From Bacteroidales bacterium (GTDB taxonomy: Bacteria; Bacteroidota; Bacteroidia; Bacteroidales; WCHB1-69), in assembly GCA_024400635.1 (NCBI GenBank), contig JAKSMI010000007.1, positions 14,363 through 78,362 on the forward strand: a DNA stretch of 64,000 nucleotides, written 5' to 3'. Position numbers and translations under genes: made by a program. Below the pieces are notes generated by a model. It saw only the letters and a program-made list of their open reading frames with translations, did not search any database and was not told the origin of the DNA. Below, in pieces: positions 13,877-50,533 of the stretch (its first letter is position 1; every line of letters starts with the position of its first letter).

Positions 13877-14863
13877 TTAGAATAACTTATACCTTATTAA
13901 GTCTATAATATCAAACAAACTATTTGATGGATGTTCTGCATTCCATTCCACAAATTCTTCCCTTTGGCGAACTTTTCTAAAAAATCCTTGTTGTTGTCCC
14001 AATGGATTATAGTTCAAAAATTTACCACCATCCATTGAATCAATCATTGCCATATCTTCATTAGTAAGTGCAAAATCAAAGATGCTAATATTTTCTTTCA
14101 GGTGTTCAATATTCCATGTCTTTGGTATCATTATTATGCCCTGTTGTTGCATCCAACGAAGAACAATTTGTACAACTGACTTATTATATTTTGATGCTAT
14201 ATTCAATAACACATCGTTCTCTACAATCCCCTTCCTCGGTTCTATTGAACGGAAATGACTGAATGTGAACATTGCTTGAGGCACAATCCCTTTATTATGA
14301 CAATACTTTATCAATGATTTTTGCGTATTCAAAGGGCTAATTTCAAATTGATTTACAGCAGGGACAATATCAGATATCTCTGCCAATGCATCTATATGAG
14401 GTTGCAAAAAATTGCTGACTCCTATTGCCTTTATACGTCCTTCTTTATATAACACTTCCAATGCCTTCCACATCTTATCTGCGTTGGGATAAGGATAGTG
14501 AATTAAAAACAAGTCAATATATTCGGTCCCGAGATTATCAAAAGACTCTTGAATTACATCTTTAATAGTACGCCCATTAGGTATATTCAAAATACTTCTG
14601 CGACCATACTTATACTGACCTCTATTAAGAGCTGCAGCATTAATTTTAGTCGTCAAGAAAACATCTTCACGCTTAATTCCATTATCTTTCAAAGCCTGAC
14701 AGATGGCTTTTTCATTTTTGTACTTCCATGCCGTGTCAAACTGACGATAACCCATTTCGTATGCTTCACCAATGGTCCGAGTCATTTCTTCATTAGGTAT
14801 AAGAAACGTGCCTAAACCTAATTGAGGCATCTGAACGCCATTATTCAAAGTTATCATTTTCAT
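13877..14863 (-). CDS. Aldo/keto reductase
   Basis: MPQLGLGTF, FDTAWKYKNE, YIDLFLIHYP, AIGVSNF, QIVLRW, IPKT. Confidence 0.92.
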   Translation of the reverse strand: MKMITLNNGVQMPQLGLGTFLIPNEEMTRTIGEAYEMGYRQFDTAWKYKNEKAICQALKDNGIKREDVFLTTKINAAALNRGQYKYGRRSILNIPNGRTIKDVIQESFDNLGTEYIDLFLIHYPYPNADKMWKALEVLYKEGRIKAIGVSNFLQPHIDALAEISDIVPAVNQFEISPLNTQKSLIKYCHNKGIVPQAMFTFSHFRSIEPRKGIVENDVLLNIASKYNKSVVQIVLRWMQQQGIIMIPKTWNIEHLKENISIFDFALTNEDMAMIDSMDGGKFLNYNPLGQQQGFFRKVRQREEFVEWNAEHPSNSLFDIIDLIRYKLF

Positions 14864-15836
14864 AAGCCAAGTCCTTTCATTATTTTGTCTTTATAACCGT
14901 ATGATCCTACAAATTCTATCATATCGAGATCTGGGAGATGATTACCTTCTATCAACAAAGGGCCTTTATCTGTGATAGCCACATCCCATCCTATATACCT
15001 GCAATCTGGCAGCAAGTTTGCCGCGCGTTCACAGATATTTCTCACTTCATTCCAATAAGGTATCTTACGTCCAAGCATACAAATTTCTGTTCCAGGATGA
15101 ATATACGAACTATTACCATTGGCGGCATAGTATGGAGAGATTATATAACCTAGATCTTGGTCAATCTCGTATGCGCAACCTCCAGAATGGCTATTGTCAA
15201 CTATCGACTCACCTATACCAGCGCGGACTACGGTCTTAATAATGGATATCTTTCCCGTATCTGCATGACGTACCGTGTAAACACGTATTGTATTGACAGA
15301 CTTATTACCAAATACCATATCGGGGTGTTGAATAATTTTTTCTTCTATCATCACATCTGATGCACAACAATTCTCAAACACCGTCTTTATTTCTTCGTCT
15401 GTATTTGGCATCTCGCACAAGATAACACCATCACCTTCAAGTCCGCTCATTGGCTTAATAATCGCACATTTGTGTCTATTGCAGAAGACTTTAAAATCAT
15501 CAAAATTCATCGTTTTTGAATAGAGCCAATCTCTCCCTACAAAATCAGCAAAGTAAGTGTTGAAATCCACCTTCTCTTTAAGATAATGGATTGAATCCGA
15601 TTTATTCGCTATTGCAACAACTTTACGCCAATTCTTATAGGTAAAGACTTTTCTGCGTTCACATGCGCTTCTTTTGTAGAAGTTTCCTACGACATAGTGA
15701 TTAAGCGCGCATCCATACCGTAAGCGTGCCCAAACACTATCAATATACATACAAAATTTGCCCCCCCCCCCCCAACGGCAACAGCGAGGGAATCAATTGC
15801 AGATTTGTATTTTTTTATACCATTAAATATAATCAT
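14860..15836 (-). CDS. Sugar-transfer-associated ATP-grasp protein (ATPgrasp_ST), frameshifted at a G13 tract
   Basis: SVNTIRVYT, VDNSHSGG, HPGT, YIGWDVAIT..GPLLIEGN. An upstream ATG at 15836 (MIIFNGIKKYKSAIDSLAVAV) joins the main frame only if the tract at 15761-15773 is G11 or G14. Confidence 0.8.
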
Positions 15837-15845
15837 TTCGTAATG

Positions 15846-16815
15846 CTATTTGTCCAAAGAAAGTTTATACAAGTCGCCAAGAGTCATATCGAACTCAGCA
15901 GGATGGAAAGATGCGAAACCTTCATTACTAGAATCAAATGTCAATTCTGCAAGGTAAAGTTTTTCATCTGTATCAAAGAAGTCAACACGTATAAAGGGAA
16001 ATCCCTTAGAAAGCACTTGAGCATATTCTATCATTTGTTCAAGATGTTTCGGTTTTTCTGCATCGCATGAAGGGTGATCTTCGTACTGTACATCCATTTT
16101 ATTCCATTCTTTATCATACATTGCAAAGAGAGGGCCTTCTGAGCCAAAACGTTCTTTGACAAATAAGCAACAATAAACCAGCCCATCAAAACAAAACCAT
16201 TTGTAATCATATAATTGATCAGCTATATTTTCAATATACTCTTCCGCCAAAATCATCGGTTTTGCCTTATAGTAGTTCGTTACCAAAGAATTCATAAGCG
16301 TATTCTCTGGTTTGAGCCAGTCATGCAATTGCTTCTTCAATTTTTCAAAGTCTGTTTCTGATTTCTTCTTAATTACCTTTATGCATTGTCCACTAGACTG
16401 CATGTTTGCCTTCAAGATAAAGGTTTCAGGCAAATGGGGGGGTGATTTTCCACGCATTTTCAAGTGCTTCAATACTATCCCAAGCTCCATACATTGGAAC
16501 TACATGCCCTTTTCCCAATTTTTCGTCTATGTAATCCTTAAAGGAAACTTTATCAGTTATTCTGTATCTATCTGGGTTCTGGCAGAAGAACTTGCTCCAC
16601 TGACACTTTTCTGGGAATGTAGTTGGATGATGAATATCGAAACGATACCCCTGCATCTTCTCAAATAGGTCCATATCATACTTTACAAGGTGTTCCAAAG
16701 ACCATTTGTCCATAGTACGCAATTCACCATATTTCAAGAACCTGTTCAAACGCAAGGCTAAGGTTCTTAAATAAGGGCTACCGATTAATACTTTCTTTAG
16801 ACTTTTGTTCAACAT
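15846..16815 (-). CDS. TupA-like ATP-grasp protein, split by a frameshift at a C7 tract
   Basis: 5' ORF has PTTFPEKCQW and TDKVSFKDYI; 3' ORF has LPETFILKAN, DYKWFCFDG, FIRVDFF and LAELTF; C6 or C9 at 16436-16442 fuses them. Confidence 0.82.
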
Positions 16816-16819
16816 TTCT

Positions 16820-17786
16820 TCAACTTTTTAAGATTTTCACCACATCTGCGTATGCACCAGGAGTTCCGAGGCTTTCCAAGGTGAATATCCCTGGGTTGTG
16901 ATTGCCTTCAATGAGTTCTACACCATTTTGTGTGAATGCAACATCCCAACCAATAAATCTGCATTGTGGTATTTTTTCTGCTGCCTTTGTGACGGCTTCT
17001 ATGGCAAGTTCCCAATTAGGTAAATGATAACCAACCATACAAGTTTCGGTTCCAGGATGAAATATTATGTCATAATTATTACCCTGAATGCCTTTGTGGT
17101 CAATGATGCCACTCTTAACATCAATCTCATAAAGTACACCTCCTGCTGAATAATTATCAACCACTGAATTACCAACCCCAACTCGTAAACCTGCTCGAAC
17201 CACATGAGCCTTACCCTCTGTATCAAGAACCGTAAGAATACGTGCAGAATTTACTGACTCATTTCCGAAAATCATTTTCTTGTGTTGACGTATTATCGTT
17301 TCTATTATTAAATTCTTATTTTTTAAATCTGTTAATAGTCGTTCAAAAGTTATGTCGCTGGTTTTAATTTTATAAATTCCTTCGCCTTCCATGTCATCAA
17401 GTGGTTTAATAAACAACTCTTCATTTTCAACGTACATTTTTTTTAACTTGCCTTCATCCATATTTTTAGAGCACAACCACTCCCTCTCTACAAACTCCGC
17501 AAAAAAGGCATTGAATTCATTTTTATTTTCCAAAAGGTGAATGTAACTTCGATTATTATAACCTTTAATAATCCGTTCAACTTTTCTCTGAGTAAAAGCA
17601 TGTTTACGTACAACCTTACTCATCAAATAGAAGTGTCCTTTTATATACTGATTTATCAAACAACCATATTTTAACAAGCAATATGAAGAGTCAAAATAGA
17701 ACCACAAACGACTTATTCCAGTCTCTTTAGAGAGTTTCTTACCCCCCCCCTATAACCTTTTGAATATAATTAACATACTGTTTCAT
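16820..17786 (-). CDS. Second ATPgrasp_ST protein, frameshifted at a G9 tract
   Basis: SVNSARILT, VDNYSAGG, FIGWDVAFT..GVELIEGNHNPG. ATG 17786 reads MKQYVNYIQKVIGGG-TAA with G9; G8 or G11 reads through into the main ORF. Confidence 0.82.
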
Positions 17787-17793
17787 AGTTCAA

Positions 17794-18819
17794 TCAAATC
17801 AGTGAGAAATTATCATTTACCAACTCGCTTTTCCGGCGAATTACAACATCATCATACATCAGCATAAGAATATCATCATCATACTGGCCGATGATGCTCT
17901 CGTTCTCGATACCGTTCATATTATTCCAAATCAGGGGGAAGAAATCCACACCAGCTCCATAGGCATGAAGATATGCACCACCGAAACGAGGATTTACCTC
18001 AGAGAGAAGATACTCGCCATCCCTGATGAAGAAGTCCATATCAAGAGGACCACAGAACTTGAAGGCAAGAGCAATCTTCTCTATGAATGCGAATAGTTTA
18101 GGATCTTTGTAAGAGATTGTCTTGCTGGCACCACCGATACGGATCTCAATCTTACGCTTGGAGAAGGCTGCCACGGCTTTGTGACTGATAGCATCTACGT
18201 ACACGTCTGCATCACAGTCGCCACCGGCCATCAACTCCTGGATTATGTAGTCGTGCTCACCACTGAACCAGTCGCTCTTCGCCTGTTCCATAGTATAAAC
18301 CTTGTGAGCACCTACACTACCACTACCGCAAATAGGCTTCATAAATACAGGGAAACCAATCTCGCCATCCTCAATAGCCTTCACGAACTCATCCCAATCG
18401 TGGAATGTCAAAGGCGTAGGGATGCCCTTAGACTTGCAGTACTTGAACATCTCATACTTATCAAAGCAGCAACGGGCTGTGATGTCATCAGCGGGACAAA
18501 GAGGCAAAACACCAGCCTCAAGGAATCGGTCACGATTGCGTGATAGCACTTCAATTTCAGGATCTATCAGTGTTGTTATTGCCCTTACATTATTATCCTT
18601 GCATATATTGATTACGGTATCAATATAATCGGGAGCATCTATCCGAGGGACAACATATTCCTTCGAAGCAAAAGCCAATGCCGGTGCTGTCGCATTATTG
18701 TCAGTTGCTACAATTCTGCATTTATCACCAATTGATTCCTGGGCATTTCGAAGCAGCCGACCACGTCGGCCACAACTACAAAATAAAAAACTATTCATTT
18801 TACCGTTATTATTTTTCAT
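17794..18819 (-). CDS. ATP-grasp protein (carbamoyl-phosphate-synthase-like, PRK12767 type)
   Basis: SCGRR, TLIDPEI, CFDKYEM, KPICGSGS, IIQE, SEVNPRFGGAY. Confidence 0.85.
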   Translation of the reverse strand: MKNNNGKMNSFLFCSCGRRGRLLRNAQESIGDKCRIVATDNNATAPALAFASKEYVVPRIDAPDYIDTVINICKDNNVRAITTLIDPEIEVLSRNRDRFLEAGVLPLCPADDITARCCFDKYEMFKYCKSKGIPTPLTFHDWDEFVKAIEDGEIGFPVFMKPICGSGSVGAHKVYTMEQAKSDWFSGEHDYIIQELMAGGDCDADVYVDAISHKAVAAFSKRKIEIRIGGASKTISYKDPKLFAFIEKIALAFKFCGPLDMDFFIRDGEYLLSEVNPRFGGAYLHAYGAGVDFFPLIWNNMNGIENESIIGQYDDDILMLMYDDVVIRRKSELVNDNFSLI

Positions 18820-19771
18820 TTATATATCTGCAATTATTCTTAAAAAACAATGGTGTCCCTCCTGTATGGATAAAGAGGATACGCTTCCCCTTGATATTGT
18901 TCTTCTTTAGATAATCTTGCATCCCATAAAAAGCCTTGCCGGTATAAGTCGCATCCAAATTTATACCGTTTTTAGCGAATTGATGCTTAATCATATCCAT
19001 AACCTCTTTGCTATATGTACCATATCCATCGCACCTATAATCGCCCAAAATAGTATAGTCCTTTTCTGAGATATTGCTGGCAATACTGGAATCGTAAGCC
19101 TGAAGTGACTGCCTCATTATTTCCTTAGCGCGAGACACTTCCCGAGCTATCGTAATACCATATAGCCGCTTTCTATATCCGCCGACAACATTTTCTATAA
19201 TCAGGCCGCTCATTGATGTTCCGGTGGCAAGAGTAATGAAAATATAATCAAAGTTCACATCATTTTCGTCTTCGAAACGCACTATTTGTTTCAGAACATT
19301 CCGATAAGAATCAGTGCCTCTTACTCCATGCCCACCTCCGTAAATAAAATATGGCTTATGTTCTTTTTTGTATGCGGAGATAACTTCATCTATAGTATGC
19401 GAAACTGCATTCACGGAGCATTTGACAATCCTCGCACCAAGGAATGAAACCAATTCACTATTCGGTGTCTGTACATAATTTTCTTCAGGAGATACAATAA
19501 CGCATTGCAAACCATATCTTGAAGCCATATTGGCAATCACTCGGCATAGATTGGAGCTGCTGGCTCCGTATGTCACCACTACATCATACCCTCCTTCAAT
19601 TATTTCCTTAAAATAACTTGCGGCAATACGGCATTTGTTGCCTCCAAAAGAAAACGGAATTGCTTCTTCCTTTTTAATATATAAGTCATTGGAGTCATCA
19701 CTGATTTTCACTATTGGCGTATCATAGTTCTGAATCCAATCAAGTTCTTCAATTATATCACTTTTTTTCAT
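18809..19771 (-). CDS. PLP-dependent D-cysteine desulfhydrase/ACC deaminase-like protein
   Basis: FSFGGNKCR (PLP lysine), YGASSSNLCR, ATGTSMSGL, LDATYTGKAF, FIHTGG. Confidence 0.85.
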   Translation of the reverse strand: MKKSDIIEELDWIQNYDTPIVKISDDSNDLYIKKEEAIPFSFGGNKCRIAASYFKEIIEGGYDVVVTYGASSSNLCRVIANMASRYGLQCVIVSPEENYVQTPNSELVSFLGARIVKCSVNAVSHTIDEVISAYKKEHKPYFIYGGGHGVRGTDSYRNVLKQIVRFEDENDVNFDYIFITLATGTSMSGLIIENVVGGYRKRLYGITIAREVSRAKEIMRQSLQAYDSSIASNISEKDYTILGDYRCDGYGTYSKEVMDMIKHQFAKNGINLDATYTGKAFYGMQDYLKKNNIKGKRILFIHTGGTPLFFKNNCRYINEK

Positions 19772-20417
19772 TATTCGCAGCCTGCTTAATTCTATAGACG
19801 TCAAAATCATCCATAAATCCCGGTTCAACAACTCCTTCGGATTTTATGATATTTTTTATAGTCATAAAGACAATTTTCAGATCCATTATGAATGAAACGT
19901 TATTCACATATTCAATATCGTATTTGAACCTTTGTTCCCAAGATCTCAAAGAATTGCGACCATGAAGCTGAGCCCATCCTGTCATTCCCGGACGGACATC
20001 ATGTCTATGAGACTCCTCTTCTGTATAATATGGCAAATACTTTACAAGCAGCGGCCTCGGGCCTATTAACGCCATATCGCCCTTAAGGATATTGATGAGC
20101 TGTGGCAGTTCGTCAATGGAAGTGGAGCGCACAAAACGGCCTACCTTCGTCAGACGTTGAGCATCCGGCAGCAGCTTCCCTTCCGCATCCCTCTCGTCCG
20201 TCATACTCTTGAACTTGATAACTTTGAAAATCTTCTCATTCTTCCCGGGACGGTCCTGGGTGAAGAAGATGCCCTTGAAGCCGTTCTTGTTGGCAAAGAA
20301 CAGCAGCACCATCGTTGCAACGAACAATGGCGAGAGCAATATCAACGCCATCAGTGCCCCAAGAAAACCGATGGGGCGCTTGATGAGGCGGATGTATAAT
20401 TTCTGTTGTGTGGTCAT
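19758..20417 (-). CDS. Initiating phosphoglycosyl transferase (PglC-like sugar transferase)
   Basis: FFTQDRPG, KFKSM, RSTSIDELPQL, GPRPLL, RPGMTGWAQ. Confidence 0.9.
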   Translation of the reverse strand: MTTQQKLYIRLIKRPIGFLGALMALILLSPLFVATMVLLFFANKNGFKGIFFTQDRPGKNEKIFKVIKFKSMTDERDAEGKLLPDAQRLTKVGRFVRSTSIDELPQLINILKGDMALIGPRPLLVKYLPYYTEEESHRHDVRPGMTGWAQLHGRNSLRSWEQRFKYDIEYVNNVSFIMDLKIVFMTIKNIIKSEGVVEPGFMDDFDVYRIKQAANNEKK

Positions 20418-20516
20418 TACTATGGTCATCGTTATCGTAGCCAAAGGCGTATCGTTATCGTACGAAGTTTCGTTTTCGTTGGCGAAGCCCCCTCTAACCC
20501 CTAACCTCTAACCTCT

Positions 20517-20792
20517 TTGCTGAAACGGCAAAAGTATTCGGACACACCTCCACCTTCGCCGGATTTACCTTCGGATTATGCTCAATCACGTATTTTACAT
20601 TGGCGGGACTCATACATCCAATCCAGTCGCTGATTCGGTAGAGTCCTTCTCTTTCCTGCGGAACGACCGATAAAGAAATCCCTTGGGACCGGATTTGGAA
20701 AGCATTTCGCGGAACTTCCTCAAAAAATCAGTATGCATGCCCCCGGCATTGATGTCAGTCACAGGGGACATTGTAAGGTAAAGTAAGTTCAT
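20517..20792 (-). pseudogene. GT4 glycosyltransferase (WbuB-like) remnant with large internal deletions
   Basis: MNLLYLT..DINAGGMHTDFLRKF joined to LYRSFRRKEK and, after a frame shift, SDWIGCMSPANVKYVIEHNP..KVEVCPN. Confidence 0.6.
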
Positions 20793-21067
20793 ATTGTAGT
20801 TTTCGATATTGCATTCCACCCGCATCTGATAAGGCAGGCAAGGTTGCTCTCCTTAGCGAAAGCCTTGAACTTCCATCCATTGCGGAAAAGTATATTGTAG
20901 GCCATATTCAGGTGGCCGTTCTTGAATCGTTTCTTTTGACCAAGAGAAAGAATATCGTCCAACATCCGTTGGTCGTTTTTTTTCAGTTCGGTCGATGGCT
21001 CTTTGCAGACGTATTTCACCACTCTTGTCATCGATACCGCAAACTCCCGCATCCCGAAGGTCTCCAA
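20789..21067 (-). pseudogene. C-terminal fragment of an unidentified capsule-locus gene
   Basis: Short ORF whose stop overlaps (ATGA) the GT4 remnant start; no recognisable N-terminus. Confidence 0.35.
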
Positions 21068-21912
21068 TGTTTTAGAAATCCTCTCTCTAAGCTCTCAGCT
21101 ATAAGCTGAAAATCCCTCTTCCCGTGCATCTCCTCCACAAGCCGCTCATACACCAGCTGCCAAGCCTGCAATGGGTCAAACTCGACCTCCGGACGGAGCA
21201 GGGGTTGAACGTCTTCCAGAAACTCCTCATCCTGCATCTTCAACTCCATATTCTGCACAAACTCCTTGTACGATGGCGCACGTTCTGCCACAAACTCGAT
21301 ATACTTGCGGTAGCACTCCAATATTTTCTCCGCATCCAGCTCCTGCGTGCTCAATGCCAGATACAAGTCGAACAGGTCGCGTCCCTTCTTCCTTTGATAA
21401 AGCGCACGAAGTTTCGTCCCCACCAATTCCTCCAAGTGATAAGTCGTCAGCTGAGCCTCACCCGTAAACCAGCCGCTCTCCACCTTGAACGGCACCTCCT
21501 GCAACCCCATCACATTGAAATGCTCCATACAATTGATCTCCACCTTCAGGCGAATCTGCTGCACAGGCGGAATCTCTGAATCCACCTTGAACAGCAGCTT
21601 GTTGCTATGCCGCTTCTGCTGAGTCGAGCGGTTCGGCAACCATCCCAGCACCTTCCCCAACCTGAACATAATCGGCTTGATAGGCCCCGGTTTAATCTGC
21701 ACAAGATCGATATCCTCACTATACCTTGCCTGCGGATGCAGGAACAACTTATGCAGAGCCGTACCTCCTCGGAACGCAAGATTTTCCCGCAGGAACTCAT
21801 CACTGAAAATACTCACAAGGGCTCTACAGATAATCAAATCCTACTCCACCATCTCGTTTTTCGACCATGGTGCCATTTCGCTCCATTCTCTGATAAATGA
21901 TTCCTGTATCAT
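21028..21912 (-). pseudogene. abiEii: AbiEii nucleotidyltransferase toxin with an in-frame TAG at codon 24
   Basis: ATG 21912 overlaps the abiEi stop; reads MIQESFIREWSEMAPWSKNEMVE*DLIICRAL; FRGGTALHK, RYSEDIDL, TKLRALYQRKKGRDLFDL. Confidence 0.85.
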
Positions 21913-22730
21913 ATTTCGTCTATGTCAATTTCCTTATTAACAACCACTTTCCAGCGTTCATCCACTGGCATACCTTCCTCAATAGGAGTAGATGCCTTCA
22001 ACGCCGTCTTGCGGAATTTCAATCCACCATTCTTGCACAAAGCATACAATTCATCCGCAACCGACTCATACTCCAGCAGAGACAGAATATGCCCAAACCG
22101 TTGTATTACAGCCGCAGGAAAACACCTCAGCAGAGGCAAACTCTTGTCATCCAGAGCCACTACATCCATCAACTCATAAAGCACCTCCGCCACACGACTC
22201 AAGCCGCCTACCTTTCTTTCCTGTTGCACCAAATCCAAAGCAGTCATCAATGGCGAGGAAACTTGGATATAGCCAGATTGCGTCCTTACTTGTTGTACAA
22301 ATTCCGAGGCAATGTCGTTCTTCTGGATGAAATCTATTTTGGTTCCCTTCTTCCTCACATTTCTTAAGGTGGCACCATCGGCCATAACAAAATACGTCAT
22401 CGACTGCTGATGCGAAGCTCCATGCAAGGCTGCCGCAGACAACAGACTTACATAATAATTTCTGCCAAGGAAATGCATCAACCGATCGATATAGAAATGC
22501 TCAGGCACCACACCTCTCAGTCGATACTCCATCGACACGATAACATAAAAATTCTTCCAGGGGGAGATTATCCTTTTTGAGGAAACCAAGCGGGACAACG
22601 ACACCTCTAAAGAATGCTCCTTCGCATCGGGAAAGATTTTCTGCACATCTTCCTTTGTAAAGAAGTAGCGCCCCCTCATTTCTTGAGCATCAATCCATTC
22701 GGAACAGCTGCTATATTCACCGTTATTCAT
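21909..22730 (-). CDS. abiEi: Type IV TA antitoxin AbiEi
   Basis: N-terminal wHTH, YYVSLLSAAALHGASHQ, VSSPLMTALDL, QRFGHIL; coupled to AbiEii. Confidence 0.88.
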   Translation of the reverse strand: MNNGEYSSCSEWIDAQEMRGRYFFTKEDVQKIFPDAKEHSLEVSLSRLVSSKRIISPWKNFYVIVSMEYRLRGVVPEHFYIDRLMHFLGRNYYVSLLSAAALHGASHQQSMTYFVMADGATLRNVRKKGTKIDFIQKNDIASEFVQQVRTQSGYIQVSSPLMTALDLVQQERKVGGLSRVAEVLYELMDVVALDDKSLPLLRCFPAAVIQRFGHILSLLEYESVADELYALCKNGGLKFRKTALKASTPIEEGMPVDERWKVVVNKEIDIDEI

Positions 22731-22760
22731 AACATCAAACTTGCGATTCTATACAAATTA

Positions 22761-22857
22761 TGTAGAGTTCTGCGATTTCGCTGCAAAATTACAACTTTTC
22801 CCCGACCCAGAAGGTGATTTCTGGAATTTTCTTTACACATTAACGATTCTTAACCTT
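22761..22857 (-). repeat. Copy 2 of the ~100 bp promoter-bearing repeat (abiEi promoter)
   Basis: About 75% identical to 13032-13128; -7 element TAATTTTGCAG about 50 nt upstream of the abiEi ATG. Confidence 0.85.
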
Positions 22858-22861
22858 AACC

Positions 22862-23740
22862 CTAAACCTCCACCACTTTCGCCTTGTTCCACTCAATTGT
22901 CTTATCCGCCTCTTCCAGATTTACATAGTCGAAGGCACGCACAAGGTTGCACATCTTGTTGAATGCGCCACCGCTGCCAATGCTTCCTTTTATCATTCTG
23001 ACAAAACGGTTTTTGAATGTCCCAGTCTGCTTGAAATAACTTTCGTATGCTTCTTTGGTCATCATCTTGTACGGATGGTGCTCAAGGTCGTTGATATGGA
23101 AATAGGTCATCACATAGTCGGATGACTTCATGTTTTTGTTGATGAAGCCAAGTGGAAAGAATCTGAAATACCCACCTCCGGAATAGGCTATCTGATGACC
23201 TGCCAATGTGGTGAGTGAGACGGGAAACTCTTTTAATGTGGCATTGCCAATCTTTACTAAGCAAGGCTTGTCGGCCGGGAATCCGGCAAAGCCGCCGAAG
23301 TCGCGAACTGCAGGATAGATAGACGCATCTCTTTCTATTCCACATTCTGCCAGCACCTCAAATGCCCACTTGTTCTTCTTGCCAATGGAGAATGCCGGAG
23401 CGCGAAAACTCTTCACTTTCTTACTAACCACGTCTTCAAGCGACTTAAGGGCACTTTCGGTATCCAATTTAAGTTCTTCTGGACTAAGTTTACTCAACCA
23501 AGCGTGTTCGTTAGAGTGGCAACCTATTTCGTGCCCTTTATCAGCTATTTTTTTGACCACATGAGGAAATTCTCTTGCCAAACCACCCACACAGAAAAAG
23601 GTCGCTTTCAGCTGTTTTTCATCAAGCAAATCCAGAATTCGGCTCAAATAATCGTCAAACGTTTGGTATTCACTATCTTGAAAAATACCTTTTTCTTTTT
23701 TTAAATACCACTCCTCGATATCAAAGGTAAGGATGTTCAT
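22862..23740 (-). CDS. Polysaccharide deacetylase (DUF3473 type)
   Basis: LTFDIEEW, ATFFCVG, GHEIGCHS, FRAPAFSI, SGGGYFR, YFH. Confidence 0.9.
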   Translation of the reverse strand: MNILTFDIEEWYLKKEKGIFQDSEYQTFDDYLSRILDLLDEKQLKATFFCVGGLAREFPHVVKKIADKGHEIGCHSNEHAWLSKLSPEELKLDTESALKSLEDVVSKKVKSFRAPAFSIGKKNKWAFEVLAECGIERDASIYPAVRDFGGFAGFPADKPCLVKIGNATLKEFPVSLTTLAGHQIAYSGGGYFRFFPLGFINKNMKSSDYVMTYFHINDLEHHPYKMMTKEAYESYFKQTGTFKNRFVRMIKGSIGSGGAFNKMCNLVRAFDYVNLEEADKTIEWNKAKVVEV

Positions 23741-24807
23741 CGTAAAAATTTAATTTTTGAAGAATGCCTGACTATATCAATGGCGACCATTACCCCGGTC
23801 ACTATTATCATTGTCAACAAGAATGGCACAATGCTGTTACAAGAGTTTGTCCATATATCCATTTGGCTGATTCCCATCATTCTTGAATAGAAGACAATGA
23901 TTACGCCTTTAATGGGGACATTCAATGCCATTGCATCAAATGAATTACGGCCGAACCATTTTAAATAACTGTATGTTTTGCCAAAATATTTATGAACCTT
24001 ATCTGAACCTTCGAGCAATAAAGAAGTAATAATAACGGCGGCTGAGCCCGCTATTGCCCTAAAATAGAAAGCCGGAATACTCTCGCCATAATAACTGTGC
24101 CCCATAGAAATCTTTGGATTATGGAAACAAGAATATGCAAGATATACTGTAATTGCTACTGCAATTAATAAAAATGCCGGTTTTTTCTTATTTACAAAAT
24201 CAAAAGTTTCTTTGTGCCCACAATATTTTACAAATACATTCCCGAGGCATAAATATGGGAGTGCCATCAGCCCCGTGTCCATATTCCAAGGAAGAGAAGA
24301 CCACGAGGATCCCAGATACTTTACAAGCACGATATTCAATGCCGCCAAAGAAAAGCACACGGCGACGTTCAGCCATGCCGGAAACTTTGATATAAAATAA
24401 TACAGACACTGTACACCCATCAGGCAAGGTACAAACCATAGGGCGGTATTATGTACGAGATAGTCCTGAGAGCCCTGAGCGATAAGTGTCTGAAGCAGCG
24501 GCATCCAAATACTTTCAACTTCATTATGGCTAACAGTATTATATAATACCCATATCAACCATGTCGCCACAGAGAATATGGCGTACGGCACAAATAGGGT
24601 TTTAAGTTTATGGGCAAAAAATCGGCCGAAAGATTTTTGCCGGTCCGTACGGAACAACATGCCTGATATAATAAAAAACAACGGCATGTGAAAGAAATAG
24701 AAATATGTACATAGCGGGCCTGACGAATTGATATGTCCCCACACGACACCAATCATTCCAAGTCCCTTCGAGATATCAAGATAATCTAATCTTTTAACGT
24801 TCTCCAT
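23737..24807 (-). CDS. Acyltransferase family 3 (O-acyltransferase)
   Basis: RLDYLDISKGLGM..VVWGH, FHMPLFFIISG, LWFVPCL; multi-TM. Confidence 0.9.
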   Translation of the reverse strand: MENVKRLDYLDISKGLGMIGVVWGHINSSGPLCTYFYFFHMPLFFIISGMLFRTDRQKSFGRFFAHKLKTLFVPYAIFSVATWLIWVLYNTVSHNEVESIWMPLLQTLIAQGSQDYLVHNTALWFVPCLMGVQCLYYFISKFPAWLNVAVCFSLAALNIVLVKYLGSSWSSLPWNMDTGLMALPYLCLGNVFVKYCGHKETFDFVNKKKPAFLLIAVAITVYLAYSCFHNPKISMGHSYYGESIPAFYFRAIAGSAAVIITSLLLEGSDKVHKYFGKTYSYLKWFGRNSFDAMALNVPIKGVIIVFYSRMMGISQMDIWTNSCNSIVPFLLTMIIVTGVMVAIDIVRHSSKIKFLR

Positions 24808-27098: not shown

Positions 27099-27116
27099 TA
27101 TCTTGCAAATGCACTC

Positions 27117-27266
27117 TTAAGAATTTCTCTTTGATACATATCGAGACATATCGGTATAATTATGCCGGCCACCATATAACAAAATCACATAAAACCTATC
27201 ACGTCGCAATGACCTTACCATGGCAAGGCCTTGCGTACTGCAGCCTAAAAAAAGAACCTTTATCAC
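27117..27266 (-). pseudogene. N-terminal remnant of a paralogue of the 24794-25963 ATP-grasp gene
   Basis: Manual translation VIKVLFLGCSTQGLAMVRSLRRDRFYVILLYGGRHNYTDMSRYVSK versus NNVLVLGGGTQGLAIVRNLKLSGFYVVLFAEKGNYADASRYADK. Confidence 0.75.
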
Positions 27267-27275
27267 GTCTTGTAT

Positions 27276-27836: not shown

Positions 27837-27841
27837 AGCGG

Positions 27842-28636: not shown

Positions 28637-28663
28637 AACGTCCCGCAGTCTTTCCTGTTCATA

Positions 28664-30756: not shown

Positions 30757-30757
30757 A

Positions 30758-33709: not shown

Positions 33710-33719
33710 ACGGGCTGTG

Positions 33720-34805: not shown

Positions 34806-34808
34806 TAT

Positions 34809-39985: not shown

Positions 39986-40009
39986 CTTTTAACCAAACAG
40001 CCTAACCAA

Positions 40010-41275
40010 TTATCTCAAATGACATATTCTTAAAATTTGCCCACCTAAGCTTCTGGTAGATCTATAAAAACTTCTTAGTATCAGATAGAATTTAGAGTAT
40101 TCCTGATCAAACCTTAAATTGTAAATCCAGTTGAAGTTTTTATCGTCCTTATAAATTTGAAGTTCGTCATATCTCTCCTTGACCTCTCTCCAACAAATTC
40201 TTAGAACTGGCGATTCTTTCATAAATCCACCAACTGTCTTTTTTGCCCCAGATAAGTATTGCTTGTAACCAGCGAAACCAAAGTCTTCCGGATTTAACCC
40301 CTCTGCAAGGAGCCCAAAAATCGTACGATAACATTTTTCGCACTTGCAGCAGTTATCACCTTCGTGTGATTTCCAACAAACACGCAAGAATAATTGTTTT
40401 TTATCATACCTTAAAAATTCGCTTAACAATCTGATTTTCTGTTGCCTACTACAATCATACTGGTCATGGATGATATTTGTTCCACAAAATTCAAGTTTGT
40501 TATCTATTGTCGGATCGCTGGCACATGTCATTTTTATGCCTTCCCAAAATGAACTTGCTATGTATATAAGTTTAATGTTGTGCAGATATGCAATTGGAGC
40601 GGTCAATCCGAGCAGGCCTATACCGTGTTGAAATCCGTGCCACCACCCATCCTTTGATTTCGACACTAATGCGTCTAAATTTGAAAAATTCAAAAAACGA
40701 CTAAAATTCGATTTAATGAAAAATGGCTCGGGAAGATTAAACTCATTTGTGGTATAATATGTCTGCTGCTTTATCGAATTCCAGCCATCAACATCGTTTA
40801 GTCCAACATCCGCTCCGCATACTGTCAACAAATGTGGACTTTCAGCGCGATGCGCTATAAGTGTAGAATACGCATCCAATCCTCCTGAAAATAGTGATAT
40901 AACCTTATTTTGTTGTGATTCCGTTCTTGATTTATTATCAATGAGTTTATTTACGGTAACATGTCCATTAAACTTGAGCATAGGATACATATTAGCATAG
41001 GCATCACGAAGACTATTTATGCATTGGTAAAAATCAATGTCAAGTTCATCCAATTCTAACAAGGAGTCAGTCAGCCAAATGATAGGTAAAACATTAGTTA
41101 CAAAGGGAATTACAGCGATACTATTGGGGGCACTTGAAATATCTTCAAAATAGTCGGCGAAGAATTCGCCCCAATCATTGCTAAAATATTTAAATAGCGA
41201 CCCTTGTGTGTCAAATCTGATGCGAATGCAATTATTCGTTTTTTTAATTTCGGTTATTGAAAGAATGTTTCTCAT
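40010..41275 (-). CDS. PP-loop (adenine nucleotide alpha-hydrolase-like) protein of unknown function
   Basis: SLFSGGLDAYST PP-loop-like motif; RVCW...NCCKCEKCYRT cysteine cluster. Confidence 0.6.
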   Translation of the reverse strand: MRNILSITEIKKTNNCIRIRFDTQGSLFKYFSNDWGEFFADYFEDISSAPNSIAVIPFVTNVLPIIWLTDSLLELDELDIDFYQCINSLRDAYANMYPMLKFNGHVTVNKLIDNKSRTESQQNKVISLFSGGLDAYSTLIAHRAESPHLLTVCGADVGLNDVDGWNSIKQQTYYTTNEFNLPEPFFIKSNFSRFLNFSNLDALVSKSKDGWWHGFQHGIGLLGLTAPIAYLHNIKLIYIASSFWEGIKMTCASDPTIDNKLEFCGTNIIHDQYDCSRQQKIRLLSEFLRYDKKQLFLRVCWKSHEGDNCCKCEKCYRTIFGLLAEGLNPEDFGFAGYKQYLSGAKKTVGGFMKESPVLRICWREVKERYDELQIYKDDKNFNWIYNLRFDQEYSKFYLILRSFYRSTRSLGGQILRICHLR

Positions 41276-41293
41276 AAATTAAAATTTTAGTGG

Positions 41294-42511: not shown

Positions 42512-42514
42512 AAA

Positions 42515-44059: not shown

Positions 44060-44140
44060 TAACTAATAGAACTATTTTTCCTTTAAATCATTTACTTGCG
44101 AAACTTGAATTCATCATCCTCTGTCGCGACTAGGAATAAT

Positions 44141-44629: not shown

Positions 44630-44842
44630 AATGCTTATTGTTGATTGTTCAATTAAAAAATTTATTCTTTCAGCCACACCATTTTGTTAACGATGCCAAG
44701 ATAGAATTGGAAAATTTTGATAATAGGACAATCGCGACAAGATTCATTATTTAAATTGAAAATCCCCAATTTGACTTATCCAAGAATATATTCATACACA
44801 CAAAACCAGACGCATCCGTTGCGAAAAATTAAATGTCAATGA

Positions 44843-45472: not shown

Positions 45473-45499
45473 ATTATTTTTGGGGTTAATAATAATTTA

Positions 45500-46174
45500 T
45501 TATTTCAAATACTTATTGTATTTGCTGCGGTGATTCCAAAATTCCATGTTACGAAGAGAATGAAGATCAGAACCGAAAAAGTCGTACATGCCTCTTTTCA
45601 AAAGACACTCGGCTTTGGCTTTGGCATTGCCCCCGTATGCTCCTGCCAAAGAAGAGAGATTCATTTGAAAAAGAACTCCTAAGGTTTTCAATTCCAGATA
45701 ATCATTCTCGTCCATATAGACATAACGCTCAGGATGTGCCAACACGGGAAAGTATCCTGCCTTTTTGATACGCCGCAGTATCTGGTCCATCGACATTGGC
45801 GGATTGAAGTACGAAGTTTCCACTAAAAGTTTATTTCCTTCCTCTCCCAAAGGCAACAAGTCTCGACTGGCAAGACGTTCCTCAAAAAGCTCATCCATCA
45901 TATACTCTGCCGCCAAGTGCAATTTAACTGGTCCGTCGTAGGATGCCTGCAATTCCTCAAACCGCGCCTTCAAATCCTCCGTCTTATTCGGCACATCTTC
46001 CATTATATGCGGCGTACACCATAGCGTCGAAATACCTATTTCCTCGTAATGAGCCAATACGTCCAACGCCATCTCCATGTTTTTTACGCCATCATCAACC
46101 CCCGGCAGGATGTGAGAGTGATAATCCGTAAAACCGGACAATAAGGACTTAAGGGTAGGCCTCGAAAACAACAT
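45500..46174 (-). CDS. CpsB/CapC PHP-family tyrosine phosphatase
   Basis: DYHSHILPGVDDG, TPH, AAEY, LAHPERY, GSDLH. Confidence 0.92.
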   Translation of the reverse strand: MLFSRPTLKSLLSGFTDYHSHILPGVDDGVKNMEMALDVLAHYEEIGISTLWCTPHIMEDVPNKTEDLKARFEELQASYDGPVKLHLAAEYMMDELFEERLASRDLLPLGEEGNKLLVETSYFNPPMSMDQILRRIKKAGYFPVLAHPERYVYMDENDYLELKTLGVLFQMNLSSLAGAYGGNAKAKAECLLKRGMYDFFGSDLHSLRNMEFWNHRSKYNKYLK

Positions 46175-46176
46175 GG

Positions 46177-48636
46177 TTATTCTTCTTCCGTATGATAGTA
46201 TGAGTCATGTCCATAATAGCCATAATTATGGTAATCGTAACGATAACCGTAACGATAACCGTAACGATAACCATACTTGTAACCATAATGGCTGGCTGCA
46301 GTGGTGGCATTGAGAATAATAGACAAGTTATTGTATTTGTGTTGTTGGTAGAGCGCTTCGATATCGGGAAGGACATCACGTTCCAATAGACCCGCACGAA
46401 TGACGAAAATGGTCCGGTCAACGTAGTTGTTGATGATTTGCGTGTCAGCCACCATATCCACCGGGGGACAGTCAATAAGTATGTATTCGTACTCGGGTCG
46501 GAGCATTTCCAGCATGTTGCCGAAGGCAGCATCCTCAAGCAATTCGGTGGGGTTTGGCGGGATGGTGCCTACGGGAAGATAACTTAAAGTTGGGTAATCT
46601 TCACTGTTAATGATAACTTTATGTATGTCGGCAATCTGCTTGCCCAAAAAGTTGGCAATACCCTTCTTTGGAGAAAAAATATAAGCAGACAAGGAAGCAT
46701 GGCGCAAATCACCGTCAACAACCAGGACTTTCTTGCTTTTGATAGCCAATGCGATGGCAAGGTTCATGGTAATGAATGACTTACCACTACCTGGATTGTA
46801 GGATGTTATCATTATGGTGTTTGCATGTTCCTCCTTGGACATAAACTCAATGTTGGTGCGAAGTATGCGGAAGGCCTCGTTCACCATGTTACGACTACCA
46901 TGTTTCACCACGATGGTTTCACCAAAACCCTTTTTCTCCTCTTTGTCTTTTTTCCTCATGCGGTTTTTACGAACCTCTTTTTTCTTTTTCTTCATCTCAG
47001 TAGGGCTGAAAGTCATGGGTATTTCACCAATGAAAGGAATCGTCAGTTTGTCGAGATCCTTACGGCTACGTACGGTGGTGTTAAAGTATTCGATAAGAAA
47101 GATGATGGCTACAGGAATTGCCAAACCGACGAGGAGGGCAATGAGCCAGATGCGGGACTTACGGGGCTTTGTGGGCGCACTGCTGCCGTTAGGGTGTTCA
47201 ATCACGCGTGTGTTATAGGCGGTAAAAGCCTGCGAAAGCTCGTTTTCCTCTCGTTTTTGGAGCAAGAACAGGTAGAGGGCCTCCTTCACCTTCTGCTGTC
47301 GTTCCACTGAAAGTAAGTATTTTTCCTGGGTGGGTTTGGCAGCCAGTTGGGCATTTATTATTTCCTCTGTGTTTTGGAAGTTGGTGAGTTGTGCATTTAA
47401 TGACGTCAATTGATTATCAATAGAAGAAATAATGGTGTGTCGGAGAGCATTTAGTTTCGCGTCAAGGTCTATCACCAAGGGATTCTGCTCACTGCTGTTG
47501 GCAACGAGGCTGTTACGACGAAGCATCAACGCGTTAAACTCGGCAATTTGTCCCTCAATATGGCTATTGTTGAGACCAGAGTTGACGGGTAGCAATTGGT
47601 TTTTAAGCGTCTCATTAGTCAAGTAGTAATTGCGTATATAACGAGTAATCGAAATCTGGTTCGTCAGTTCGTTGATACGCGTATTGGTCTCGCTATTCTG
47701 TTGTAGGTACATATTGGATACAGCCGCCACATCTGGGAGAAGATGCTCGCTCTTAAAGGAAGAAATATCGTCATCTACGACACCCAAATCTCGTTCAATC
47801 ACTTGCAAACGATCGTTGATAAACATAGAGGTGCTCACCGTAATCTGGTTTTTATCCTTGATCCAAGCCCCGTTGTAAACGGCGATGAGCATATTGAGGA
47901 TGTCATCGGCGCGCGCAATGTTGATGTCATTGACAGAAAGGTCGATGATATCGGTATTCCTCTCGGCAAGCGAGATGGTGATTTTGTTGGCTAATACGTA
48001 GGCAGCACTGTTGATGTCTGAACGTTGAACATGAATCTTGGGATAGTTTTTCTCCCAACTGAAGTATTTTGTGGTGCGCACACAAAGCGATCCAATTGGG
48101 GTAGCCGTCGTTTCGTTCGGTTTGACAACCACTTCTTTGTCCATAACATCACCGTAAATTTTAAAAGCGGAGAGGGTGATTTTTCCCTTGTTCACCTTTA
48201 TATCAAACGCCACAGATTTATTATTGGCGAAGTCCTCTAATTCCACCTTCACGGGCAGGGTGTTGTCGTAAAGCATATTGTCGTGGAATAGACCTTCCGT
48301 CGTATAAGTCATATCAAGGTGCAGTTGTTGAACCACTTCGATCATATTGTCATGAGACTTTATCGTATTCAATTCATTATTGATATTCACCCCCGTCTTG
48401 AGAAAACCAAGATTTTCAATGTCACTGATATGGGCCGTGGAGTTGCCTTTATCCTCAGACTTGATAAGGATTTTCGCATGTCGGGTATAGACAGAAGGTG
48501 TCTTAAGAATGTAGAAAGTGGCTCCTGCCAGCATCACAACGACGGATATTAGAAACCAGTACCATTTAGCGAGGCACTTATAGAAAAATGTTTTTATCTG
48601 CAGAGAACTGCTTTCAGATTGTTCGCTTGTTGACAT
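46177..48636 (-). CDS. wzc: Wzc tyrosine autokinase/chain-length regulator
   Basis: Two TM segments, EAFRILRTN, PGSGKS, DGDLR, PPNPTELL, IDCPP, C-terminal Tyr cluster. Confidence 0.95.
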   Translation of the reverse strand: MSTSEQSESSSLQIKTFFYKCLAKWYWFLISVVVMLAGATFYILKTPSVYTRHAKILIKSEDKGNSTAHISDIENLGFLKTGVNINNELNTIKSHDNMIEVVQQLHLDMTYTTEGLFHDNMLYDNTLPVKVELEDFANNKSVAFDIKVNKGKITLSAFKIYGDVMDKEVVVKPNETTATPIGSLCVRTTKYFSWEKNYPKIHVQRSDINSAAYVLANKITISLAERNTDIIDLSVNDINIARADDILNMLIAVYNGAWIKDKNQITVSTSMFINDRLQVIERDLGVVDDDISSFKSEHLLPDVAAVSNMYLQQNSETNTRINELTNQISITRYIRNYYLTNETLKNQLLPVNSGLNNSHIEGQIAEFNALMLRRNSLVANSSEQNPLVIDLDAKLNALRHTIISSIDNQLTSLNAQLTNFQNTEEIINAQLAAKPTQEKYLLSVERQQKVKEALYLFLLQKREENELSQAFTAYNTRVIEHPNGSSAPTKPRKSRIWLIALLVGLAIPVAIIFLIEYFNTTVRSRKDLDKLTIPFIGEIPMTFSPTEMKKKKKEVRKNRMRKKDKEEKKGFGETIVVKHGSRNMVNEAFRILRTNIEFMSKEEHANTIMITSYNPGSGKSFITMNLAIALAIKSKKVLVVDGDLRHASLSAYIFSPKKGIANFLGKQIADIHKVIINSEDYPTLSYLPVGTIPPNPTELLEDAAFGNMLEMLRPEYEYILIDCPPVDMVADTQIINNYVDRTIFVIRAGLLERDVLPDIEALYQQHKYNNLSIILNATTAASHYGYKYGYRYGYRYGYRYDYHNYGYYGHDSYYHTEEE
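46237..46272. repeat. Perfect 12-bp tandem repeat x3 encoding (GYRY)3
   Basis: GTAACGATAACC x3. Confidence 0.95.
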
Positions 48637-48686
48637 ATTTAAAGGGTTGAATTTGTTTTCTAAAGTTCTTGATTAATGTAAAATTC

Positions 48687-49508
48687 TTAGTGCTTCAATA
48701 TCACTGTGAAGGTCGTAGCCAAAGATGCCAACAGAGACACAATGGACATCCAAAACGAAGCGGAGCGAACAGTGTTGCCGTTCACGGTAGATTCGTTGGC
48801 TCTCTTCTTATTGGGTTCCACATAGACGTAATCGTTCTGGTGGAGGTAATAGACCGGGGAGCTTTGTACGTTTTGGAGGGAACGCATGTCAACATGGTGG
48901 ACTAAGAATTGACCTGCGGTATCGGGACGGAGTACCAAAACATTGTCGCGACGACCGTAGATGGTCATATCACCGGCCTTTGAAATCGCGTCAAGGATTG
49001 TTACGCGGTCTCGTTCGATATTGTAGGTGCCCGGTCTGGTCACTTCACCCATCACAGAAAACTGTAAATTCACAAACTCTACCGTAACGATAGGGTCATT
49101 GACTAAATTGCTGGTGATGAGTTCATTCTTTATGTAGGAGGACAACTCTTCGCGGGTCTTGCCGGCAGCCGGGATTGAACCCAGCACGGGGAAGTCAATG
49201 GTTCCATCGCCTTTGATAATATAAGCAGAAGTCCCATGACTACTGCCACTCGCCGAGGACACTTGCCCAATAACACGAGTCGTATAAGGCAAGTTGAACA
49301 AAGCCGTTAATTCCGGATCCTTGGTGCTGACAATAATGGAAATCTTATCTTCCGGACGCAAGCGTATTTCTGGAGACAGCATCTGTACGGAGGCCGTATC
49401 TTGCACTGTTTGAAGATCTTGAAAATAAGAAATCTGTTTTGTCGTCTTACAAGATGACATCAGCAGGAGAGAAACGGTAAGAGCGAATAAAAGGTTATAT
49501 GATTTCAT
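48687..49508 (-). CDS. wza: Polysaccharide export lipoprotein
   Basis: Lipobox LMSSC, DGTIDFPVLG, VMGEVTRPG, AGDMTIYGRRDNV, QNDYVYVEPN. Confidence 0.92.
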   Translation of the reverse strand: MKSYNLLFALTVSLLLMSSCKTTKQISYFQDLQTVQDTASVQMLSPEIRLRPEDKISIIVSTKDPELTALFNLPYTTRVIGQVSSASGSSHGTSAYIIKGDGTIDFPVLGSIPAAGKTREELSSYIKNELITSNLVNDPIVTVEFVNLQFSVMGEVTRPGTYNIERDRVTILDAISKAGDMTIYGRRDNVLVLRPDTAGQFLVHHVDMRSLQNVQSSPVYYLHQNDYVYVEPNKKRANESTVNGNTVRSASFWMSIVSLLASLATTFTVILKH

Positions 49509-49562
49509 GTTAATATGATTTTGTTGATTGGAAAATTCAAAAAAAAACACGGGATAAAATTA

Positions 49563-50090
49563 TTAATCGTTGATTGGCTCAAGCAGACAGCTTGGAATAT
49601 ATGAGGTGGCAACCGCCACAATGCCTTCGATGCAGACGATGAGGCGGCGATTGCCTTGTATGCGTTTGATGTAGCCTTCCGCACCCTCGAACTGCCCACC
49701 GGTGACCCGCACACGTTGACCTTGGCAGTATCGGGTCGCATCTGCGTCAAGGTATTCAAGATATTTGTCGTCAGCGCGGGTGACAAACATGAAAATCTGC
49801 ATCTCATGGTCATCGATGGCAATAGGTCTTGTTGAATTAATGTAGTGGTAAACGAAGGCCCGCCCCTCGAGGTCTATTTGCAGCCGGTATGCCAGCTTTT
49901 CTGAGGCACGGAAAAACATCAACGAATTGACCGCCGGCTTCTCTACCACTTTCCTTTTCCCTGCCCGCACGATTTCCACATGCGTCACGGGAATATACGA
50001 CTCCACTGCCATTTCCGTCAGCAAGTCCCTGATCTCAAAGACTTTATTATAAAATACTTTTAATGCGTACCAATGCACTTCGTTTGTCAT
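49563..50090 (-). CDS. upxY: UpxY (NusG-like) transcription antiterminator
   Basis: WYALKVFY, PAVNSLMF, M.IFMFV, GQRVRVTGGQFEGAEG (KOW); ATG 50090 preferred. Confidence 0.9.
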   Translation of the reverse strand: MTNEVHWYALKVFYNKVFEIRDLLTEMAVESYIPVTHVEIVRAGKRKVVEKPAVNSLMFFRASEKLAYRLQIDLEGRAFVYHYINSTRPIAIDDHEMQIFMFVTRADDKYLEYLDADATRYCQGQRVRVTGGQFEGAEGYIKRIQGNRRLIVCIEGIVAVATSYIPSCLLEPIND

Positions 50091-50300
50091 GTTCACGTAT
50101 TTGACAAAACCTTCCATTCCCCACCACAAAGTAAGTAGGTCATGGGAACGCCGATCAATTAGTAATTCCTTTTTTCGGCTATGTTCACGAAACTGCCCCA
50201 GTCCCGATTCCAATTTCCTCGTTGGAAGTAATAATTTATTTTATGTCGTAAAAATTCAAATAGTAGATTGAGTATTAGTTTTTACAAAATTTAATATGTT

Positions 50301-50310
50301 TGCAAAGATA
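50301..50310 (-). promoter_or_regulatory. Bacteroidetes -7 promoter element of the capsule operon
   Basis: Minus strand TATCTTTGCA about 210 nt upstream of upxY. Confidence 0.65.
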
Positions 50311-50533
50311 AAAAAAAATCATTTGAAATTCATGAGTCGTGGTTTTTTTTTTGGAAATACACGGGGGGGGGGTAACTTACTATATACTAATGAGTTATAA
50401 TTTGTGCGGGAGAGTGGGAAATATGTAAAAGAGGGAAGATGATATTGTCACTCAATGTGGGCCGTTTTTTTTTCTTGTCGCTGTCGAGGTGAAAAAACGC
50501 AATGAGTAATGGATTCGCTTCATGTTTTATCTA

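Follow-up and report, generated by a model that had tools for sequence, protein, structure and literature searches.

Capsule expression in Bacteroides fragilis and Bacteroides thetaiotaomicron is switched among 8–10 whole loci by recombinase-driven promoter inversion (PMC3090145 and PMC11868660). Other bacteria vary their surface glycans through simple sequence repeats (SSRs): PMC11868660 describes the SSR repertoires and six-gene phasotypes of Campylobacter jejuni and lists the lipooligosaccharide (LOS) contingency loci of Neisseria and Haemophilus. In PMC3090145, Patrick et al. cite the repeat switching of the Escherichia coli K1 capsule O-acetyltransferase within a speculation on Bacteroides that starts from a run of four C. 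Here we analysed a 64-kb window (the whole stretch of DNA studied, G000:C37:14363-78362) from the genome of a gut Bacteroidales bacterium. It contains a capsule locus in which long G/C homopolymers lie within seven genes for predicted capsule modification. We estimate a probability of roughly 0.75 that these tracts are simple-sequence contingency sites, switching capsule-decoration genes by slipped-strand frameshift.

The locus resembles those of C. jejuni, where intragenic poly-G tracts of ∼8–13 nt are clustered in the capsule, LOS and flagellar glycosylation loci and generate combinatorial phasotypes; the poly-G target genes of C. jejuni also encode modifying enzymes, not export or polymerisation functions. 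It differs in phylum and in architecture (a Wza/Wzc locus of Bacteroidales with a NusG/UpxY-like gene at its head), in having ATP-grasp ligases as the main targets, and in lying in a genome that encodes MutS and MutL, both of which C. jejuni, to our knowledge, lacks. In Neisseria and Haemophilus, slipped-strand changes in the repeats of glycosyltransferase genes likewise switch glycan epitopes; these are, however, mucosal pathogens in which the varied glycan is LOS, whereas here it is the capsule. Mismatch repair is present in both genera, and the repeats of Haemophilus are mostly tetranucleotides. E. coli K1 offers another case of a capsule O-acetylation gene under repeat slippage, but there a single, phage-borne gene with heteropolymeric repeats is involved, while here there are seven genes with homopolymers. 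With Bacteroides the locus shares the bacterial order, the purpose (capsule diversity within a population) and a NusG/UpxY-like first gene; it departs from the Bacteroides type in that there is one export locus, no convincing inverted repeats and no UpxZ ORF, and in that the variation lies inside modifying genes. The searchable literature (subscription journals and supplements fall outside it) yielded no account of repeats causing phase variation in the capsule loci of Bacteroidales; the capsule phase variation described there for this order is solely promoter inversion with UpxY/UpxZ (PMC11868660 and PMC3090145). The mechanism proposed is a classical one; what seems to be new is its presence in Bacteroidales and its use of ATP-grasp genes as targets.

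Homopolymeric tracts in the capsule locus

A run scan of the window (G+C content 40%) detected eight G/C runs of at least 7 nt, all of them inside the capsule locus; after these, the longest run is a C6 (35580-85). The lengths and positions agree with those of an initial annotation of this DNA, made from the sequence by a model, which had likewise found no such run elsewhere in the 64 kb. The strand on which it read the bases needed correction. On the + strand, six of the runs consist of C, which makes them poly-G on the coding (-) strand, where all genes of the locus lie, and the run at 16436-42 is G7 on the + strand and C7 in the coding strand. The eighth, at 50363-72, is intergenic and reads G10 on the + strand and C10 in the orientation of the operon. 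Runs are named below by their coding-strand base.

The capsule locus spans 35.5 kb, which is 1.46% of the genome (2,428,339 bases in 39 contigs; 97% complete). It holds eight of the 24 runs of at least 7 nt present genome-wide (binomial P 1.2e-9), seven of the 13 of at least 8 nt (P 2.3e-10) and five of the seven of at least 9 nt (P 1.4e-8). The only runs longer than 10 nt in the whole genome are its G13 and G14. Under a zero-order expectation, the locus should contain 0.85 runs of at least 7 nt, 0.18 of at least 8 nt and 0.0001 of at least 13 nt. Coding need does not explain the tracts, since GGG is the rarest glycine codon in this genome (8% of the glycine codons in 1,650 long ORFs, a crude set). 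Outside the locus, and in the same crude set, a G run of at least 7 nt was found in one of 253 stretches of three or more glycines and in six of 2,544 Gly-Gly stretches. The clustering of the tracts in the capsule locus is real and non-random; as expected of an SSR contingency locus, they are over-represented with respect to both the genome background and codon usage. Repeats of hypermutable length occupy reading frames in seven cases (7–14 nt) and an intergenic region in one (10 nt).

Reading frames were established by three-frame translation together with an in-silico series of tract lengths. This analysis upheld the initial description of seven intragenic runs, four of them out of frame and repairable by a change of 1–2 nt, and three in frame. 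Pfam likewise placed the genes in the families proposed, namely three ATP-grasp genes (two ATPgrasp_ST and one TupA-like), two Acyl_transf_3 genes plus one hexapeptide acetyltransferase, and one GT4 (Table 1). The three ATP-grasp genes and the GT4 gene are all out of frame (OFF) together in the window. Three genes have the tract at codons 13–50, while the other four have it mid-gene. The G13 leaves a 296-aa ORF downstream of it; homologues of this gene are mostly 321–328 aa long and share the 27 residues upstream of the tract, a conserved N-terminus that places the tract truly inside the gene. The C7 splits the TupA-like gene into ORFs of 129 and 214 aa, which correspond to consecutive positions of the PF14305 profile (1–51 and 55–240). 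In five of the six coding-strand G runs the tract is directly followed by TA, in three of them by TAA, so that one of the shifted frames terminates immediately.

Table 1. Features of the capsule locus, listed in operon orientation; tracts are given as read on the coding strand.
Feature	Position	Strand	Family evidence	Tract and position	Codon	Frame in window	In-frame lengths (nt)
NusG/UpxY-like first gene	49563-50213	-	Pfam NusG, E 2.1e-8				
Wza	48687-49550	-	Pfam	none			
Wzc	46177-48636	-	Pfam	none			
CpsB/CapC phosphatase	45500-46174	-	Pfam	none			
MOP-type flippase candidate, 514 aa	42515-44059	-	Atlas feature score 1.00	none			
Acyl_transf_3 O-acyltransferase	36998-38053	-	PF01757	G9, 37308-37316	~246	in	6/9/12
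Acyl_transf_3 O-acyltransferase	31812-32774	-	PF01757	G8, 32332-32339	~145	in	5/8/11
GT4 glycosyltransferase	30758-31811	-	PF13692 + PF00534	G14, 31644-31657	~50	out	9/12/15
EpsG-family (Wzy-type) polymerase	28664-29773	-	PF14897, E 2.8e-16	none			
Hexapeptide acetyltransferase	27276-27836	-	PF00132	G8, 27434-27441	~132	in	5/8/11
Initiating sugar transferase (Bac_transf)	19758-20444	-	PF02397, E 1.5e-58	none			
Second ATPgrasp_ST ligase	16820-17790	-	PF14397, E 7.5e-41	G9, 17742-17750	~13	out	5/8/11
TupA-like ATP-grasp	15846-16815	-	PF14305	C7, 16436-16442	mid-gene	out	6/9
ATPgrasp_ST ligase	14860-15830	-	PF14397, E 5.9e-40	G13, 15761-15773	~20	out	8/11/14

Tract lengths in metagenomes and public proteins

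Part of the locus was present in 20 sequencing runs, all from animal-gut or related metagenomes and all in the form of contigs; no RNA run contained it. Four of these runs (X1, X2, X3 and X5), belonging to three studies, were aligned on positions 14860-34859; stretches without cover in X2, X3 and X5 carry no information. X1 is probably the source sample of the window. Its contigs, an independent assembly with a depth of 83–86, reproduced the C7, the G9 at 17742 and both G8s with 0 differences, the length of 7 at the C7 site coming from a contig at depth 83. The X1 contigs (depth ∼85) end exactly inside the G13 and the G14; elsewhere in these 20 kb they end solely at the repeated AbiE region described below. 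Breaks at the G13 and G14 are consistent with a mixture of lengths in the sample.

In X2, which comes from another study and has a depth of 4.6–7, three contigs, 2,744 nt in total, covered positions 15212-17933 and showed 0 substitutions. At the G13 site X2 was 5 nt shorter (G8, in frame), with no other difference. At the C7 site it was 1 nt shorter (C6, in frame), with no other difference in 909 nt and a depth of 4.8. One further 1-nt gap was found in the contig spanning the G9 at 17742 (depth 4.65), which also contains a T8 at 17437-44. At 32332, where the window has an intact G8, X2 showed an out-of-frame G7 at depth 7.1 in an allele diverged by 3.4%, and X3 kept the G8. Both X2 and X3 lacked the GT4 gene containing the G14: a joint from 30771 to 31732 omits 960 nt, with 14 other letters inserted. 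The G14-bearing GT4 gene is a presence/absence cassette. Scans of JGI metagenomes with the flanks of the intergenic run and of the G13 gave 0 matches each, and have no bearing on variation.

Public proteins were compared as translated gene calls in 90% clusters, so these forms are known from protein sequences alone. Two OFF genes of the window have a read-through counterpart of their own allele. The 267-aa gene call at the G9 (17742) clusters with P0257, a protein of 321 aa found on four contigs that reads through the tract, and the 244-aa call at the G14 clusters at 90% with P0290, a protein of 343 aa with ‘MGGGK’ at the tract; P0141 (82% identical) likewise reads ‘MGGGK’ through the tract site. 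Among the 15 of 17 members listed for the G13 orthologue cluster, 325-aa forms with ‘GGG’ at the tract were found on 23 contigs, an otherwise identical 324-aa form with ‘GG’ on six, and forms of 296/298 aa, beginning at the first ATG after the tract, on 14. Two clusters of orthologues of the G9 (17742) gene each contained a long and a short form: 321 aa on 18 contigs and 267 aa on 15 in one cluster, 321 aa on four and 268 aa on three in the other. In the pairs compared, the protein bodies were identical. The cluster for the G9 at 37308 contains solely the two gene calls of this genome. A Prevotella paralogue (L060:1254-1262; ATPgrasp_ST; from the record of a metagenome-assembled genome, MAG) carries, at about codon 243, an in-frame G9 with TAA after it. 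Its 90% cluster comprises proteins of 325 aa (44 contigs), proteins of 245 aa that terminate at the tract (30 contigs) and proteins of 267/268 aa read in the other frame (four contigs), together with matching C-terminal pieces. Both read-through and truncated forms are in circulation; they recur on tens of contigs, which come from NCBI, JGI, ENA and Logan.

Overall, a comparison of the kind that the initial annotation had proposed as a check (tract lengths across strains and MAGs) revealed differences at five of the eight tracts (G13, C7, the G9 at 17742, G14 and the G8 at 32332) between samples or assemblies, with length changing while the flanks were conserved; variation was not seen at 27434. 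The number of variable sites demonstrated is about four or five, and the 2^7 decoration states first suggested should be read as an upper bound.

Proposed slipped-strand switching and its alternatives

These observations suggest the following scheme. Long G runs would gain or lose bases by slipped-strand mispairing during replication, and such a change in an intragenic tract would move the gene between an intact and a truncated frame. The products of the genes affected would add side groups to the repeat unit of the capsule; judging from their families, these could be amino acids attached by amidation (ATP-grasp ligases), O-acyl or acetyl groups, and one extra sugar (GT4). With export, polymerisation, flipping and initiation left free of tracts, many decoration variants might be produced without loss of the capsule, and from a single export locus. 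Switching would be reversible and frequent within a clone, and selection by phages or by host immunity would presumably act upon the variants.

Several findings weigh against this scheme. The length differences lie between samples and were read from contigs, not within one population. The breaks in the X1 contigs could equally be attributed to Illumina slippage on runs of 13–14 nt, while the C6 of X2 and the gap in its G9 contig come from depths below 5, at which differences may be errors. The G8 at 27434 was unchanged in two comparisons, an X3 contig (0 gaps over 23061-28426) and P0136; slipped-strand switching as first proposed gains support from the five polymorphic tracts and none from this one. 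The protein forms that begin after the tract are gene-caller output. Further, the 5′-proximal ATP-grasp genes (those with the G13 and the G9) retain in the OFF state an ORF of 296 and 295 aa, respectively, that spans the whole Pfam domain and might still be translated. Finally, with MutS and MutL encoded in the genome, slippage rates may be below those of Campylobacter.

Related genomes add to these reservations. In relatives, long tracts occur at scattered sites that show no association with capsule genes, as judged from 49 classified loci (30 from a survey of the family and 19 from five genomes of the same genus). Pfam analysis of 43 tract-associated ORFs from relatives yielded Fib_succ_major (three), Por_Secre_tail (two), LytTR (two) and otherwise singletons among the 25 of 32 families listed; NusG and capsule-export families numbered 0 among these 25. 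A tblastn search with 35 proteins of the locus against 31 tract loci of relatives gave one Bac_transf match in total, and the DNA of the ATP-grasp end, when sought in 40 relatives, returned solely a chance-level match of 26 nt, with no orthologous locus. In species representatives, none of four full-length loci for more distant ATPgrasp_ST homologues had an N-terminal tract. Given the mixed Pfam tally, two ideas were dropped: that the family as a whole uses poly-G switches in its capsule loci, and that runs upstream of genes of ∼200 aa mark UpxY promoters. The claim of a diversification strategy different from that known for the phylum finds support in the searchable literature and in the Prevotella paralogue, but not in the tract loci of relatives. 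In the family survey, a G10 run was found in 81 of 121 genomes, several of these runs being contig-end artefacts. Very long poly-G stretches occupy contig ends in several relatives, for example a G34 closing L012 and a run of 14 opening L030; these resemble artefacts of two-colour chemistry and inflate naive counts.

The main rival to slipped-strand switching is one-way decay, in which the tracts would be mutation-prone but would lead, at strain level, to the effectively irreversible loss of dispensable decoration genes, with no evolved switch. This would agree with the OFF state of all three ATP-grasp genes and the GT4 together, with the outright deletion of the GT4 in X2 and X3, with the presence of MutS and MutL, and with the fact that the comparisons are between samples and not within a clone. 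We nevertheless consider it unlikely. Decay leaves unexplained why long G runs, made of the rarest glycine codon, have accumulated in this locus, why a single allele exists both in frame, with GGG in some copies and GG in others, and out of frame, and why the Prevotella paralogue has three common frames (44, 30 and 4 contigs); moreover, 13–14 nt far exceeds the length needed for a one-off frameshift.

A reading in which each tract has in truth a fixed, in-frame length, the frameshifts being homopolymer errors of sequencing or assembly, is largely excluded. Long G runs are error-prone, as the X1 contigs breaking at the G13 and G14 and the frequent poly-G artefacts at the contig ends of relatives (such as the G34 of L012) illustrate, and X2 reached a depth of only 4.6–7. 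However, the independent X1 assembly repeated four of the tracts at high depth without a difference, a discrepancy of 5 nt (13 versus 8) is atypical for a miscall, and both of the located changes in X2 yield in-frame lengths. Both protein forms also recur on tens of contigs from several sources, and error could create neither the tracts nor their clustering. It is just as improbable that rescue at the RNA or protein level is the explanation, i.e. that transcriptional slippage or ribosomal frameshifting yields some full-length protein and the tracts tune its amount. The OFF forms do retain long downstream ORFs, and runs of 13–14 nt are long enough in principle for slippage of RNA polymerase, but rescue does not account for length polymorphism in the DNA, and it would modify switching by slipped-strand frameshift rather than replace it.

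Organisation of the locus and possible significance of the tracts

Pfam matches indicate that the tracts belong to a single large capsule locus of the Wzx/Wzy type, which is encoded on the - strand and holds the sole Poly_export match of the genome. The run scan found no G/C run of at least 7 nt in the core block from the NusG/UpxY-like gene to the phosphatase (45500-50213). The initial annotation had listed wza, wzc, wzx, wzy and the initiating transferase as spared by the tracts. Pfam confirmed this for Wza, Wzc and Bac_transf, and for a polymerase of the EpsG family. The wzx assignment stands only as a lead: the 514-aa ORF has no Pfam match, its Atlas hits are to Bacteroidota clusters, and MatE or Polysacc_synt is carried by 11–47% of the members in the top three cluster rows, which would fit a MOP-type flippase. 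The 421-aa ORF (40010-41275) is not recognisable as a Wzy; it has no Pfam match at E<=1, and its Atlas leads are to DUF6395 and QueC-like clusters.

Downstream of the flippase candidate, the genes for a PGA_cap protein, the 421-aa ORF, a GT2, a pyruvyl transferase and an Acyl_transf_3 are followed by GT4, GT2, GT4, an epimerase, the second Acyl_transf_3, the GT4 with the G14, a GT8, the EpsG-family polymerase and a GT2. Next come the hexapeptide acetyltransferase, a GT4, an ATP-grasp, a third Acyl_transf_3, a polysaccharide deacetylase and AbiEi/AbiEii, and at the far end lie Bac_transf, a PLP enzyme, a PylC-like ATP-grasp, the three tandem ATPgrasp_ST/TupA-like genes and an aldo-keto reductase. 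Named records with homologues of the ATP-grasp genes belong to Bacteroides, Prevotella, Muribaculaceae and Prevotellaceae MAGs, in line with the Bacteroidales origin first proposed. The AbiEi/AbiEii toxin-antitoxin pair (21028-22730) lies within the locus, with the deacetylase on one side and the initiating transferase on the other. Over positions 20200-22860, summed depth exceeded that of the flanks in all four aligned metagenomes (∼1.7–2 times in X1 and by much more in X2, X3 and X5), and many alternative joints and loose ends were found in all four. This suggests a repeated or mobile segment and a recombination hot spot.

The NusG/UpxY-like gene is preceded by a 320-nt intergenic region, in which the C10 run (50363-50372) lies. 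The only match to a TAnnTTTG -7 box in this region, TATCTTTG, is at 50310-50303. The run is where it was first reported and is not in the core promoter: it lies 53–62 nt upstream of the -7 box and outside the -33/-7 spacer. Around the promoter no convincing inverted repeats were found, the best having 16–18 nt at 78–81% complementarity or 12 nt at 92%, so that, from the sequence, the flanking invertase-type repeats of a Bacteroides inverton were not recognised. A NusG-family UpxY antiterminator as the first gene, in contrast, is a Bacteroides-type feature that the locus does have. UpxZ does not follow it directly: the wza ORF lies 12 nt from the NusG-like ORF (49550/49563), with no ORF between them.

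The other long runs of the genome adjoin genes for a protein sorted by the type IX secretion system (T9SS), a MatE gene, transposases and an hsdS pair. In the last, a C7 (G000:C36:90723-90729; L038:2724-2730) lies in the overlap of two consecutive Methylase_S ORFs, which may represent a frameshifted or phase-variable hsdS. At G000:C1:535285-535700 (L033:2786-3201) a C9 is found in a 138-aa ORF of no family and a G7 near the 5′ end of a divergent neighbour with a T9SS C-terminal sorting domain, making this region a candidate for a second variable surface locus. Runs of G7–G8 at G000:C10:2696, C38:62318 and C12:28622 lie just past the ends of transposase genes (DUF772, DDE_Tnp_1) in a near-identical context. 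They are probably part of insertion-sequence termini, in which case a few of the ‘background’ runs of the genome are copies of a repeat.

Variation of the capsule in gut Bacteroidales governs susceptibility to phages and the interaction with host immunity. If the tracts act as proposed, surveys based on invertons miss part of this variation, and a frameshift in a capsule gene of a MAG is not to be written off as an error or as the mark of a pseudogene. The ATP-grasp ‘sugar-transfer associated’ ligases would be indicated as variable decorators of the capsule. The phasotypes of uncultured lineages of the animal and human gut could be read from tract lengths in metagenomes and would provide a testable handle on selection by phages and the immune system; since they would be readable in metagenomes that already exist, they should concern specialists in capsules, phages and the microbiome alike. 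More tentatively, SSR contingency might be an overlooked second layer of capsule variation across the gut Bacteroidales, in which small-genome lineages with a single export locus would use a poly-G switchboard, notably of ATP-grasp ligases, instead of multi-locus invertons, and in which the phasotypes found in public metagenomes would track phage and immune pressure.

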